Positions 55,412-64,000 of a DNA stretch of 64,000 nucleotides are shown here, in pieces. Each line of letters opens with the position of its first letter. Within the stretch, counting starts at the first letter, position 1. This DNA is from Atractiella rhizophila (taxonomy: Eukaryota), in the NCBI GenBank assembly GCA_021432655.1, contig MU271236.1, positions 62,001 to 126,000 of the forward strand. Reading direction: 5' to 3'. The notes under the pieces were generated by a model. The model ran no database searches and was not told the origin of the DNA. It saw nothing but the letters and a program-made list of their open reading frames with translations. A program made the position numbers and the translations under genes.

Positions 55412-56670
55412 TCTTGCGCCGTTTAAAGACACATCTGTGACAAGGAAGAGAATGAACACGGAAAGAGAGGAATCAAGCAGGTTGCCTACGGTATACCACG
55501 CTGTGTGCAGAGGGTGCAAAATGGCGGATCGGTGTTGTGTACTCGAATGCACCTGTGCAAATGGACCAGTCAGCTCCACTGCAAGTCACAGAATGTTGGT
55601 AATAGATTGTAGAAAAATACAGAAACTATGTAGCATGTGCTACCTCTTACTGCCCAGCGAAGCTGTGCGACAATGGTGATGGTCTAGTGAAGATTGACGA
55701 CTTTTTCCAGAAAATTATTGAAAGCCCGCCGTCTTTAGTTGACTCAGGGCTGATTCAAAAAGTTGCTCTCTCCTACTGGTAAGTCAATACACTTCATTCG
55801 TCGCGATGTAATGAGAGGACTCAGAAGTTTAGCATGGCTGTTGCTAGAGTAATTCCATTTGTCGCGGCATAGGGATATGATAGGGTCATACAAGTAAAGG
55901 AGAATCCGCTGAAGTTTTGTCTCAAGAATGTGAATTTGACTTCTATGGCCGGGAAACACAGTCGAGTTGTGACGCAGGAATGAATCCAATTCACTAGCAG
56001 CTGGAGCAGAAAGTCACATTTGTGCATCCCTTGGATTCTGGAGAGTACGAGAGCCAGGGGACGGCCGAGTATACCACTGTGGGGTACTAAGTATTTAATC
56101 GTGAAAGGTAACTAGATTCATGTCTCGGAAAATTAAATGAGAATGAAAGTGCTTGCTGACGCTAGATTCGCAACGCAACGCTGCGTTAGGTCTTGTAGGA
56201 GTCATGATATAGCTAAGGTAATCACAATTGACAGCTTTAGAAGAAAAATAAGGTAGATAGGAGCGCTATCAGCGTTCATCGGCTAGTCCGACATTGTTTC
56301 TTGGACGGACATTTACACCTTGCTGACTGCCTCTTGATCCACCTCCTCATCACACTTCAAGCAAAAGACAATTTCGATAAAATTTGAGCGGTATTGAACG
56401 TAGAAGTGACAAATGACACGACTTACTTCCTCTTCATGCTCCGACATGCCTCGCACGCATAAACAATCGGTTTCCCCTGTCCCCTCTTCCTCTTTGCACC
56501 ACCTATCGTCACCTCAGTTACTTTATAGACATCTCCCTTGTCACTACTGCCACTCGCTAACACTATCGTATGAGAATCACTCTCAGGAGAGGTCGAAGAG
56601 TCAGTGGACATGATCGTTTGGTGGTGTGTCACTATTCCGCCCGCGGAACCACAAAAAATGAAAAATGCGG

Positions 56671-56704
56671 GACTCGAACCCGGGCAAGAACTAGCAGGTA
56701 TATA
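56671..56704 (+). promoter_or_regulatory. snRNA-type upstream element GACTCGAAC (-58) and TATATA (-30) of U4
   Basis: Position relative to the U4 start; a similar motif pair recurs upstream of the four small RNAs at 61.9-63.0 kb. Confidence 0.65.
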
Positions 56705-56728
56705 GAGCGCCCAGCCTGACAACTCAGT

Positions 56729-56866
56729 ATCTTTATGCTCGGGCACGCGTCATATCCAGTGAAGCTTAGCTGAGGAGTGACCATTTGCTAATTGCAAACT
56801 ACCCATCCAGATCCTCTTCTTCAACCTCCGTGTTAGGAAGGAATTTATGGAACCCTTGCGGGATCT
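56729..56866 (+). ncRNA. U4: U4 spliceosomal snRNA
   Basis: 5' ATCTTTATGCTCGGG resembles yeast U4 AUCCUUAUGCACGGG. Kink-turn 5' stem-loop GTCA-TAT-CCAGTGA-AGC-TTA-GCT-GAGG-AG-TGAC, U6-pairing TTGCTAATTG as in human U4, Sm-like site AATTTATGG (56842-56850) and a short 3' hairpin. Confidence 0.9.
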
Positions 56867-57054
56867 TTGTTTTTTAGCTTTCTGATACGTTTGTTTGATT
56901 AGCGAACAGGGACAGAGCACCTCGTGTTTGTTTGAACCTTTGCTTGATCTCATTTTGCCACTGGTGTTGTGACTTCAAGTTTTCGATTATTAATCGATTA
57001 TAATAAGTAGATCAATTCTGCATGAAATGGATTGCGAACAGATTCGGTTGCACA

Positions 57055-61548: not shown

Positions 61549-61973
61549 TTTGTCGACGTTGGTTGAAAACGAGCTTTCACACTCTCGTTCTGGCTGGCCG
61601 CTCTAATTTAGAGTTTGGACTTGACGCCCAGATGTTCCCGATCACACTACCCCGTAGTCCTCATTCTGACTACGCAGCTGACTACGGCAGCCAGCAGGCG
61701 TGCGTTTCTGTTTTTCCCTGCGACGCGTTGGTTGTTTGAATAGTGCGACGGTGCGACGCATTGTGGAAAGCCCCTGACGTGTGTTGAGCGCATTGAACGT
61801 CAGGGTTTCTTCGCCTCAGTCCACGGCGCAAGACCGAACCTCCACGACTCGAATCACCCATCGTCATCCCGAAAGCGTTCTGAATCAGTTTCTTTCCCTT
61901 TCCTATTGCGATAGCTGTGGGATTCGAACGAGCGAGGAACGGAGGTTTATCAATGCATCTTTCAAGTTTGCTG

Positions 61974-62047
61974 GTGTCCAGTAGCTCTCAAATGCTCACC
62001 ATAGCCACCGGAATTGAAATCTGCATATCTCTGGACATGTTCTTTTT
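61974..62047 (+). ncRNA. Putative novel tRNA-like small RNA, unit 1
   Basis: GTGTCCAG/CTGGACAT terminal stem, TAGCTC box, hairpin CGGA-ATTGAAA-TCTG, T5 at 62043-62047; upstream GATTCGAAC at 61921. Confidence 0.7.
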
Positions 62048-62159
62048 ACTATTTTCATTCTCACACGAGGTCTAGACCTGAGGAGCAGAAAGAGATTGAA
62101 CGAACGGGGTTCGAACGAGAAAGACAATGAATATATTAGTTCCTATTTTAAACTCTCAA

Positions 62160-62252
62160 ATGTCCAGTAGCTCCTCTACTAAACTGGTAAAGAATAGTCT
62201 AACAACTGTTTGAGTGCGTTCAAGTCGTGCATCTACTCTGGACGTGCTTTTT
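62160..62252 (+). ncRNA. Putative novel tRNA-like small RNA, unit 2
   Basis: ATGTCCAG/CTGGACGT stem, TAGCTC, hairpin AATAGT-CTAACA-ACTGTT, T-arm-like GTGCG-TTCAAGT-CGTGC, T5; upstream GGTTCGAAC at 62108 and ATATAT at 62131. Confidence 0.75.
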
Positions 62253-62572
62253 GCCACCATCGCGTCTTGATGCTGATTCTTCCATTTCTTTCTTCTTTGC
62301 ACATTTTCAGGTCTACATTACATTTTGGCTCAGAACGATCATCCATGCACTTTAAAATACCCCTGCAATCTCAAGCGCTTTTGCGTTTCTGGATCCACCA
62401 GTGTTGACCATTGACGGTGCCAACCATAACGACCTTGCGAACTTACGGTATTCTCTACCTTCCGTTCCTACCTACTTGCAGCACTTGGGAGAAGAATATT
62501 CTACGAACGAGATTCGAACTTGATCGTACATGACCACGCAGACGACTCATATATGCCCGATGCAACGTGGGT

Positions 62573-62652
62573 CGTGTCCAGTAGCTCTCTTCAACTACGC
62601 AATCAGACTGCTAATCTGCCGTGCATCAACACTCACTTGGACATGCATTTTT
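62573..62652 (+). ncRNA. Putative novel tRNA-like small RNA, unit 3
   Basis: CGTGTCCAG/TTGGACATG stem, TAGCTC, hairpin CAGA-CTGCTAA-TCTG, small GTG/CAC hairpin, T5; upstream GATTCGAAC at 62511 and ATATAT at 62549. Confidence 0.75.
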
Positions 62653-62936
62653 GTTACTTTGACTCGGCCTCCTTTCTTTCAGTGAACCTATGCACATCCC
62701 TGTGTGTTTTTGCCTCCCCTTAGTTTGCCATACAGAGACAAGTGTGTGGAGCAGCAAGGGATTAATCGATTACAGGATTGTGCCCTTCTCATGAGTAAGT
62801 CTGGTGTTTTCTCTCCTTCCTTCTGTGAGTAAGAGGACAGGAAAGGATGTTGAATGAGGAAAAGACACTCTACGAACCGGATTCGAACGTAAACAAAACG
62901 TATTCACTTTATGGGTTCCTTTTACGACCTTGCCTC

Positions 62937-63018
62937 CATCCAGTAGCTCTTCAATTTAACAATCAATAGTTTGGGTCTATTTGAGTGCTTCACGGCACCA
63001 TCTGGGTGTGCGCTTTTT
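62937..63018 (+). ncRNA. Putative novel tRNA-like small RNA, unit 4
   Basis: CATCCAG/CTGGGTG stem (compensatory changes relative to units 1-3), TAGCTC, hairpin AATAG-TTTGGGT-CTATT, GTGC-TTCACG-GCAC, T5; upstream GATTCGAAC at 62880. Confidence 0.75.
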
Positions 63019-63511
63019 GAAATCTTTTCATTTCATTGTCACTTTCTTTCTGACACTGTGTTGCTCCCTCTCCCTTTTCTTTTTCTCTTTTTCAGAAAGT
63101 CAATCTCCGCGCTTCGAGCTTTGGATCTCATATTGCAAATGATCCAACAACCTGTCCGTTCATCCTAACTTCGAAATCTAAAGAACTAAGGTAAGTCAGA
63201 GTCATGGTGTCGTAAGATTCGGACCTTTTGAGACCGGAAGTCAACGTGTTCTCAACTTCCTGTTTCTGCGTTGGCATTACAGTAGCTGTACATTATATTC
63301 CCTCTGATATTTCCTCAGGTAAGTTTGTGAGTCTAGATTGAGCTCTTCACAGGATCCTTTTTTACGGCTTTTCTGTTCCTTGAAGCCCTCCCTGTTCATG
63401 TCTGGACCTATAAACTGACTTTGATCATCAACAGGTCTGAACAATTGGTAATCGAGGAACTGAAGATATCTCACTCTCTACAAAGGCGACACATTCTCTG
63501 TGACCGTTATC

Positions 63512-64000
63512 ATGAAGCTCGAAGATCAAGTCGTCCTACATCCCGTCAGGTTTGTACTCCTTCAACAATTTCATCATGCTAACTCGACGGCAGCGTGACG
63601 CCCTCTCCACCCTTCGTAGTCTCATCCACCTCCCCCGACCTTCCTCAGTCCGTCATCCAACAACTAAACCAAATCCACGCCACCATCATCAACCTTCCCC
63701 CACAACTCCAAAACATCCCTCCACCACCCCAACCCGTCCCCAATCAGCGTTCGCAGACCATCCAGAAAGCGCGAGAAGAGGGAAACACGCATTTCAGGAA
63801 CCAGCGTCCCCAAGAGGCCATCAAAGCGTACACCCTCGGGTTGTCCGTAGCCTCCTCCCGTGCTTTATGGGAATCCGCCCAGTATCCGAGGGAGGAAGTA
63901 AATGCGTTGTTGATGAACAGGAGCGCGGCTTACATGGCAGTCAAGGACTGGAAGAGGGCGGAGATCGATGTCAGGAAGGCGCTGGAGGGAAGAAAGGGTC
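63512..64000 (+). CDS. SEC72: Sec72-like TPR protein, 5' part (runs off window)
   Basis: After one intron: QLNQIHATII...IPPPPQPVPNQRSQTIQKAREEGNTHFR...AIKAYTLGL...RALWE...LLMNRSAAY, the Sec72 pattern. Confidence 0.75.

Follow-up and report, generated by a model that had tools for sequence, protein, structure and literature searches.

Four adjacent genes for a putative, hitherto undescribed family of tRNA-sized small RNAs in Atractiella rhizophila

Four units with the promoter layout of a U4 gene

The DNA analyzed here is a stretch of 64,000 nucleotides (nt) from Atractiella rhizophila (assembly GCA_021432655.1, contig MU271236.1, positions 62,001 to 126,000 of the forward strand; hereafter the window), in which four neighbouring genes appear to encode a previously undescribed family of small RNAs of about the size of a transfer RNA (tRNA). 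An 11-mer, TCCAGTAGCTC, has exactly four copies in the window (61977, 62163, 62577, and 62939), none of them on the minus strand, and each copy is the 5′ strand of a terminal stem of 7-8 base pairs (bp), the bases around TCCAG pairing in each unit with a CTGGAC-type 3′ strand 45-70 nt downstream. From the start of the stem to the discriminator-like base the units, numbered 1 to 4, measure 64, 85, 70, and 73 nt. An initial annotation of this DNA had read the units as tRNA-like RNAs that each display a different anticodon-like loop on a near-identical acceptor-like stem. The letters that it quoted, including the shared 5′ motif, the loops, and the T-loop TTCAAGT and the TGGTA of unit 2, are all present, and the 73 nt that it gave for unit 4 agree with our measurement (62937-63009).

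The homology of the four units runs from end to end. They begin with R-UCCAG, in a 5′ domain RUCCAGUAGCUC that is followed by YUCWAY, continue through a variable middle, and finish in a 3′ domain GUGCAUC...CUGGAC RUGC, of which RUGC directly precedes a U run. Units 1 and 3 and units 2 and 4 form the closest pairs, with a mean column identity of 78% and 79%, respectively. When the four were folded together with RNAalifold, an 8-pair terminal stem was retained and nothing else; its helix is continuous, without a bulge, and its pair probabilities are mostly 0.8-1.0 in all four units. Two of the eight stem pairs are altered on both sides in unit 4 relative to units 1-3, one from G-C to A-U and the other from U-A to C-G. 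Moreover, a covariance model built from the four units recovered only those four in the window, at 58.6-87 bits, with the next match at 8.5 bits (E 5).

The strongest evidence on the nature of the units, absent from the initial annotation, is a promoter of U4 type. A gene for the U4 spliceosomal RNA lies about 5 kb from the array (56729-56863, + strand; Rfam, 71.7 bits), with a box, GACTCGAAC, 58 nt before its first base and a TATATA 30 nt before position +1, and with a run of six T starting seven nt 3′ of the Rfam match. Each of the four units has a corresponding box, a TATA-like element, and a run of five T that starts 2-5 nt past the stem (Table 1). The consensus of the box is GRTTCGAAC at the four units and GRYTCGAAC when U4 is included, and the latter has five occurrences in the window, each on the + strand, at a distance of 55-66 nt upstream of the four units and of 58 nt upstream of U4. 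In a five-way alignment, position +1 of U4 coincides with the purine directly before TCCAG. The shorter core TCGAAC has 43 sites when both strands are counted, of which eight have a TATA-like element within 45 nt downstream, while the combination of box, TATA-like element, and a run of at least five T located 40-320 nt downstream is limited to five of the 43, namely U4 and the four units. The layout that marks type 3-like genes, with an element near -55, a TATA near -30, and a T run, is therefore present at sequence level at all five loci.

The B-box consensus, GWTCRANNC as worded in an excerpt of PMC5499648, is matched by the minus-strand reading of the box at all five loci and by the + strand reading at none of the five; for U4 the minus-strand reading is GGTTCGAGTCC. 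GWTCRANNC is loose, with 47 matches in the window, so the telling feature is the shared 9-mer at a fixed position and not the fit to the consensus. The wider sequence upstream of U4 is GGGACTCGAACCCGGG, which on the minus strand reads as a complete T-arm-like B box, CCGGGTTCGAGTCCCG. We considered a permuted tRNA gene, or a T arm placed upstream of the units, and rejected both; in units 1-4 the box has no pairing T-stem flanks.

Table 1. Positions of the four units, their upstream elements and their predicted hairpins, with the U4 gene for reference (window coordinates).
Feature	Position	Strand	Remarks
Unit 1 upstream box GATTCGAAC	61921..61929	+	minus strand = B-box-like GTTCGAATC; 56 nt before TCCAG
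Unit 1 TATA-like TTTAT	61946..61950	+	31 nt before TCCAG
Unit 1 predicted RNA	61974..62047	+	5′ strand 61974-61981, 3′ strand 62031-62038; T5 62043-62047; 58.6 bits
Unit 1 weak hairpin CGGA/ATTGAAA/TCTG	62009-62023	+	loop ATTGAAA 62013-62019
Unit 2 upstream box GGTTCGAAC	62108..62116	+	55 nt before TCCAG
Unit 2 TATA-like TATAT	62132..62136	+	31 nt before TCCAG
Unit 2 predicted RNA	62160..62252	+	stem 62160-62167 with 62238-62245; T5 62248-62252; 70.4 bits
Unit 2 hairpin, 7 pairs, 6-nt loop CTAACA	62192-62211	+	
Unit 2 T-arm-like hairpin GTGCG/TTCAAGT/CGTGC	62214-62230	+	only internal B-box match of the array, at 62218
Unit 3 upstream box GATTCGAAC	62511..62519	+	66 nt before TCCAG
Unit 3 TATA-like TATAT	62550..62554	+	27 nt before TCCAG
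Unit 3 predicted RNA	62574..62652	+	stem 62574-62581 with 62637-62644; T5 62648-62652; 69.4 bits
Unit 3 weak hairpin CAGA/CTGCTAA/TCTG	62604-62618	+	loop CTGCTAA 62608-62614
Unit 4 upstream box GATTCGAAC	62880..62888	+	59 nt before TCCAG
Unit 4 TATA-like TTTAT	62908..62912	+	31 nt before TCCAG
Unit 4 predicted RNA	62936..63018	+	stem 62937-62943 with 63002-63008; T5 63014-63018; 87 bits
Unit 4 weak hairpin AATAG/TTTGGGT/CTATT	62965-62981	+	loop TTTGGGT 62970-62976
Unit 4 stable T-like hairpin GTGCT/TCAC/GGCAC	62985-62998	+	
U4 reference gene	56671..56875	+	box 56671-56679; TATATA 56699-56704; U4 56729-56863; T6 56870-56875

Likeness to tRNAs and to other small RNAs

The array is real and non-random, and it fits no curated RNA family. 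ARAGORN found no tRNA in the window. U4 was the only Rfam match in the whole window, both with gathering thresholds and with E up to 1, and searches at E up to 10 with the 1.4-kb array and with the single units gave no match on the + strand to tRNA (RF00005), Y_RNA, Vault, Class I, or any other family. Matches to the C/D families snR40, snR64, and sR43 on the minus strand were rejected: they reach 7-15 bits against gathering thresholds of 38-50 (E 0.38-8.9 in 93-101 nt), and that strand offers only isolated partial boxes with no promoter or terminator logic. On the + strand neither a C box (RUGAUGA, up to one mismatch) nor a CUGA occurs in any of the four units. A reading as H/ACA RNAs was likewise discarded, ACA following the stem in only two of the four units, where it overlaps paired, covarying positions, and an H/ACA layout being absent. 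In open-access text, TCCAGTAGCTC and its RNA form gave primer-like matches only, in papers unrelated by title, and searches of the open-access literature on fungal small nuclear RNA (snRNA) promoters, upstream B boxes, tRNA-like RNA polymerase III (Pol III) RNAs, and novel fungal non-coding RNAs turned up no such family.

Five hallmarks of tRNAs were considered, and only the closing stem is clearly present. All four units have a 7-bp acceptor-like stem with an unpaired discriminator and, as the initial annotation had noted, TAGCTC directly after it; with 7 bp preceding, this TAGCTC occupies the place of tRNA positions 8-13. The same annotation had held that a D stem cannot form, and we concur, because GAGC is absent from all four units; an A box (TRGYNNANNNG) is missing from all four as well, only TAGC(TC) being retained. 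A B box, as expected in a T arm stacked on the acceptor stem, occurs in one of the four units (62218) and lies there 7 nt from the closing stem, and extra nucleotides between the T-like hairpin and the closing stem, another trait already pointed out, number 3-7. That the units are not canonical tRNAs was thus correctly recognized from the start. Their likeness to tRNA genes consists in the 7-bp stem followed by UAGCUC, the size, the U-turn-type loops, the T arm of unit 2, and the T-run trailer, whereas they differ in having no D stem, weak and offset anticodon-like stems, and a T arm that is missing or displaced.

The anticodon-like loops deserve separate treatment. Hairpins of at least four pairs (G-U allowed) were enumerated and searched for 7-nt loops whose second position is U and whose sixth is a purine. 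Such a loop is found in 4/4 units, in unit 2 by way of the T-like hairpin. Among 2000 dinucleotide-shuffle sets of the unit interiors, 1447 had no qualifying unit, 500 had one, 53 had two, and none had three or more, in a test that is post hoc and that counts unit 2 through its T-like and not its "anticodon" hairpin. The loops of units 1, 3, and 4 sit on stems of 4-5 pairs, whose energies in isolation are -0.2, -0.7, and -0.5 kcal/mol and whose pairs have probabilities from 0.07 to 0.39; the stable hairpins are both of those in unit 2 (-3.2 and -2.7 kcal/mol) and the T-like one in unit 4 (-4.3 kcal/mol). Counted from the start of the stem, the loops of units 1, 3, and 4 begin at positions 34, 34, and 39, compared with 32 in a tRNA, an offset of +2 to +7, and the corresponding loop of unit 2 has 6 nt (CTAACA) or 8 nt, never 7. 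Additionally, anchoring the alignment on TGCAT places the hairpin of unit 1 opposite the T-like hairpin of unit 2, so the four "anticodon loops" may not be positional homologues. Between units 1 and 3, the stem strands of the hairpin and loop positions 2, 6, and 7 are kept while all three middle letters differ, which fits the idea of anticodon display, as far as a single pair of sequences can indicate. Given the marginal stems, the offset loops, and an RNAalifold consensus that keeps the terminal stem only, the claim of an anticodon-like loop on every unit shrinks to units 1, 3, and 4, as weak hairpins, and does not hold for unit 2. What stands of the tRNA-like RNAs of the initial annotation is a set of what look like real small-RNA genes with some tRNA traits; their anticodon-like hairpins are thermodynamically marginal and possibly non-homologous, and the idea of a tRNA-like anticodon on each unit is weakly supported.

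These traits nevertheless suggest one alternative to be weighed in full, in which the units would encode tRNA mimics: reduced cloverleafs that present a different U-turn loop each (UGA, GCU, UGG, and AAC) on a common acceptor-like stem. Their role would be that of decoys or substrates, for nucleases acting on anticodon loops or for modification enzymes, or that of non-standard adaptors. We consider this unlikely, though not negligibly so. The tRNA register of the closing stem and UAGCUC in all four units, the tRNA-like sizes, the U/purine loops with their result of 0/2000 shuffles, the change of exactly the middle loop letters between units 1 and 3, the good T arm of unit 2, and short T5 trailers that resemble those of pre-tRNAs all speak for it. 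It has to contend with the failure of ARAGORN and of the tRNA covariance model (single units, E up to 10) to recognize the units, the missing D stem and A box, the instability of the hairpins in units 1, 3, and 4, the loop of unit 2 and the displacement of the others from tRNA numbering, the 3-7 extra nt next to the closing stem, the post hoc nature of the shuffle test, with unit 2 admitted through its T-like loop, and the lack of a 7-nt U-turn loop in the lone candidate relative described below. Mimic function is accordingly speculative, and the display of anticodons is a minority possibility. In a more elaborate version, which we regard as improbable, the units would be programmable mimics, that is, a tandem, copy-variable set of tRNA-shaped Pol III RNAs in which one acceptor-like stem and the 5′ motif are retained while the three middle letters of the U-turn loop are diversified, each RNA titrating or reporting a different tRNA-directed enzyme, nuclease, or codon-specific process. 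If that version were true, an inverted B-box-like upstream element would, in this lineage, drive the expression of small-RNA genes, U4 among them, and T runs would terminate it. To our knowledge, the layout of an inverted B-box-like upstream element and a T run is otherwise found only in trypanosomatids.

Among other small RNAs, the closest documented design, as far as the excerpted source extends, is that of the Class I RNAs of Dictyostelia, which share the architecture of the units. They are described as having a short terminal stem, a conserved motif beside its 5′ strand, a variable remainder, T runs, and a frequent occurrence in clusters, with a stem whose structure is kept more than its sequence and an upstream element, DUSE, at about -60 that snRNA genes also use (excerpts of PMC7919456). 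The same excerpts report them to be unique to Dictyostelia, 42-65 nt in length, and marked by an AAG start, a CUGU end, and an 11-nt motif (PMC7919456). The short stem, the adjoining 5′ motif, the variable remainder, and an element at about -60 recur in our units, as do the use of that element by an snRNA gene, the downstream T runs, the clustering, and a stem preserved more in structure than in sequence. In contrast, the units are longer (~64-85 nt), the sequence of the DUSE differs from GRYTCGAAC, and the AAG start, CUGU end, 11-nt motif, and DUSE are all lacking; the comparison extends to what the excerpts describe. The resemblance concerns design and not ancestry.

Y RNAs come next. Excerpts of one review describe up to four paralogues at one locus with individual gene-external Pol III promoters, and, for Y RNAs and the nematode stem-bulge RNAs (sbRNAs) alike, a conserved end stem, a variable internal loop, and a 3′ U tail (PMC4726728). 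The Ro60 site is given there as a lower stem that contains a bulged C and a bulge of 3 nt, the upper stem carrying an A/GUG-CAC/U motif, and, as excerpted, the source (2015) knows of no fungal candidates for Y RNAs or sbRNAs (PMC4726728). Measured against these excerpts, the units resemble Y RNAs in forming a cluster of four and in the end stem, variable loop, and U tail, and at sequence level they have the paired ends and individual promoters too. They differ in lacking a Ro60 site, their continuous helix showing neither the bulged C nor the 3-nt bulge, and in having no conserved upper stem with A/GUG-CAC/U and no Y_RNA match at E up to 10.

Other comparisons are more distant. Vault RNAs are panhandle Pol III RNAs with tandem paralogues, an A-box-like UAGCUC directly after the 5′ stem strand, and mixed internal and upstream promoter elements. 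The units are similar to them in size, panhandle, tandem arrangement, and UAGCUC, but a full A box is found in none of the four, an internal B box in one, and a Vault match in none. With tRNA genes that have external promoters, such as that of tRNA-Sec, the units share an upstream box and a TATA-like element; in a study of Brf2, U6 and the selenocysteine tRNA were reportedly named as type 3 genes. In trypanosomatids, snRNA and 7SL genes are driven by the A and B boxes of an upstream divergent tRNA gene. What the present loci have in common with these is an inverted B-box-like element upstream of small-RNA genes, including one for a spliceosomal snRNA, and the 3′ T runs. They differ in having only a B-box-like 9-11-mer near -55 and a TATA-like element, with no companion tRNA gene and no A box, and in belonging to a fungus with ordinary spliceosomal introns.

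Natural variation and candidate relatives

Natural variation was taken from the DNA contigs of four sequencing runs. A variant that joins 62497 to 62867, with the loss of 369 nt (62498-62866), removes unit 3, and is found in one X1 contig (depth 115.9) and one X3 contig. The deletion fuses the promoter regions of units 3 and 4. The copy number of the array therefore varies, probably through unequal crossing-over. A substitution in X1 and X3, A62242G, turns a U-A pair in the stem of unit 2 into U.G. The spacer at 62624-62787 differs in one contig by 23 substitutions and 20 gap letters, whereas contigs over unit 3 (62475-62653) and unit 4 (62937-63100) contain no change. The RNA bodies (305 nt) hold 4 of the 40 substitutions listed, to which 44 further substitutions are to be added. 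Spacers are more variable than genes in these allelic or related contigs.

For relatives elsewhere, metagenomes were scanned with the pattern TTCGAAC, a gap of 40-70 nt, and TCCAGTAGCTC, which proved too loose, matching at least 118 loci. Nearly all of the loci listed are chance matches in unrelated, prokaryotic-looking coding DNA. At E up to 1 the covariance model of the four units picked out one of the first 100 listed (L073) and one of the 18 others (L107). The latter (12.7 bits, E 0.079) has no closing stem and was rejected, which makes L073 (1260-1325, minus strand; 15.1 bits, E 0.52) the sole lead among the loci listed. On its contig, next to an adjacent aconitase-family open reading frame (ORF) that we read as fungal homoaconitase-like, the segment 1260-1376 (minus strand) has the two elements imposed by the scan pattern, TCCAGTAGCTC and a TTCGAAC located 54 nt upstream. 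It has a hairpin, AGCTC/GAGCT, and, in addition to the imposed letters, a closing stem of 8 bp, a run of four T, an ATATGA about 32 nt upstream, and the second 5′ motif, TTCTACCAAAG compared with CTCTACTAAAC in unit 2; the folding z-score is -2.28. We put the chances that L073 is a true family member at about even. The initial annotation had asked whether further copies carry loops with U33 and a purine at position 37; this lone candidate has no 7-nt U-turn loop, and if it is a member, it weighs against anticodon display as a trait of the family.

Another metagenome locus from the scan, L108, is an ordinary intron-containing tRNA gene whose acceptor stem, GGTCCAG/CTGGACC, is followed by TAGCTCAGTTGGTAGAGC. 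The first 13 letters of a real tRNA can thus be almost those of the units, as a tRNA origin of the family would allow.

Interpretation and setting of the array

Our favoured and probable explanation is that the units encode small panhandle RNAs of a lineage-specific family, each transcribed independently from an external promoter of snRNA type, with termination of Pol III type. It builds on the anatomy of the units, the U4-like layout, the covariation of the stem, and the lack of a match to known families, all of which are computed. Four separate genes in a fungal nuclear genome would then encode one family of small non-coding RNAs of ~64-85 nt. The promoter would lie outside the gene and consist of the GRYTCGAAC box at about -55, an inverted B-box match, and the TATA-like element at about -30; RNA polymerase III would most likely transcribe the unit and stop at the T5 run, 2-5 nt past the RNA. 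In the predicted panhandle fold, a helix of 7-8 bp unites the 5′ and 3′ ends, a single-stranded conserved motif, UAGCUC and then YUCWAY, adjoins the 5′ strand, and a partly conserved GUGCAUC... segment precedes the 3′ strand, leaving a middle that is specific to each paralogue and holds one or two small hairpins. Stem, 5′ motif, and U tail could form a common protein platform, occupied first by La and then by a family-specific protein, while the variable hairpin loops might give each paralogue its own specificity, as in Y RNAs and the Class I RNAs of Dictyostelium. As to the traits reminiscent of tRNAs, an origin from a tRNA gene or convergence is the best reading, and we do not take them to indicate decoding; the units may be derived from a tRNA.

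Several observations weigh against this explanation. U4 is made by RNA polymerase II (Pol II) in most eukaryotes, and a promoter in common with U4 therefore does not prove Pol III. The folding energies of the whole units are no better than those of shuffles (z = 0.01, -1.52, -0.77, and 0.06 for units 1-4). The covariation of the stem rests on very few sequences, being based on four paralogues and one uncertain outside candidate, and a natural variant, T61975C, would, if not compensated, disrupt the second pair from the outer end in unit 1, its contig stopping short of the partner base. Unit 3 would seem to be dispensable or redundant, since a deletion has removed it from one haplotype and from a relative. 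Unit 4 lies between a 5′ splice site (GTAAGT/GTGAGT, 62795/62825) and a branch point with YAG (63050-63095) and, flanked by these splice signals, could instead be released from an intron. Transcription, polymerase, RNA ends, protein partners, and function of the units are predictions drawn from sequence.

That the units could be Pol II genes of a kind similar to Sm-class snRNA genes, their box and TATA-like element recruiting Pol II and their U5G being a Sm-type site and not a terminator, is in our estimate quite improbable. This would accommodate the promoter layout common with U4, and in unit 3 an AUUUUUG past the stem resembles the Sm-site consensus. However, an A precedes the U run in only one of the four units, and no conserved hairpin is present 3′ of it. 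In U4 itself, the Sm-like site and the 3′ hairpin lie inside the Rfam match and the T6 follows separately 7 nt later, which makes the T run a distinct 3′ signal at all five genes.

The splice signals around unit 4 lead to a different proposal, which we likewise hold to be quite improbable, namely that the units are RNAs processed from introns in the manner of small nucleolar RNAs, with no promoter of their own and with either a non-coding transcript or the 5′ untranslated region (UTR) of the downstream + strand gene as host. Units 2, 3, and 4 are each followed by a pyrimidine tract with CAG at its end, unit 4 lies between GTAAGT/GTGAGT and CTGAC...CAG at the positions given above, and more short exons and introns lead up to the downstream coding region. 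Upstream of units 1-3, however, a 5′ splice site of GTRNGT type is absent, so that the proposal fits one of the four units; the + strand has neither C box nor CUGA and no H/ACA layout, the Rfam C/D matches being confined to the minus strand; and the -55 box and TATA-like element, common to the intergenic U4 gene, would be left unexplained. Finally, that the units are decaying tRNA-derived copies or a tandem repeat without RNA function, the conserved blocks being protein-binding DNA such as TFIIIC-type sites, is very unlikely: the B-box-like sites are well preserved, unit 3 is missing in some haplotypes, and internal structure is weak, but the terminal stem is maintained by compensatory changes and by a natural variant from U-A to U.G, T5 lies 2-5 nt past every stem, the spacing of the TATA-like element is fixed, and the units are old, as the 78-79% identity of the closest pairs indicates, yet identical in all four in the 11-mer.

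Should the panhandle RNAs that we favour be transcribed, they would constitute an undescribed fungal small-RNA family with the panhandle and variable-core design of Y RNAs and Class I RNAs. The compact signature of -55 box, -30 TATA-like element, and T run, common with U4, could serve as a guide to other small-RNA genes of this lineage. A further question that it raises is which polymerase is responsible for U4 here and, in view of the T-arm-like box, the TATATA, and the T6 of the U4 gene, whether machinery of Pol III type carries out its synthesis or termination. The partial likeness to tRNAs may represent a case of a tRNA gene converted to another use.

The window around the array is eukaryotic and fungal in character, with short introns of GTAAGT type, and includes a DEAD-box helicase-like gene. 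The best protein matches are likewise eukaryotic, Zoopagomycota and Basidiomycota being the phyla most often represented, and they allow no finer placement. Divergent from U4 is an ORF similar to Zn2Cys6-type transcription factors (56423-56746, minus strand), which ends in a CEACRSMKRK-type motif that we take to be of the fungal Zn2Cys6 type. It starts about 117 nt from the start of U4, so that a very short intergenic region, which holds the U4 box, is common to the two divergent genes. Short exon-like segments are chained along 62795-63435 (+ strand), bounded by GTAAGT/GTGAGT and YAG (62795, 62825, 63095, 63191, 63319, and 63434), and lead to the ATG near 63514 of a downstream TPR-like gene (+ strand); because of this chain, unit 4 may sit in the first 5′ UTR intron of that gene. 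Upstream of the array, a perfect 9-bp hairpin is found at 61770-61810 (+ strand; CCCTGACGT ... ACGTCAGGG, with TTTCTTC behind it). The sequence just 5′ of the box of unit 2 (62095-62112) has 78% identity with the 3′ part of the hairpin, ATTGAACGTCAGGGTTTC. This hairpin may be a relic of the promoter of a fifth unit, or the terminator of a neighbouring minus-strand gene.

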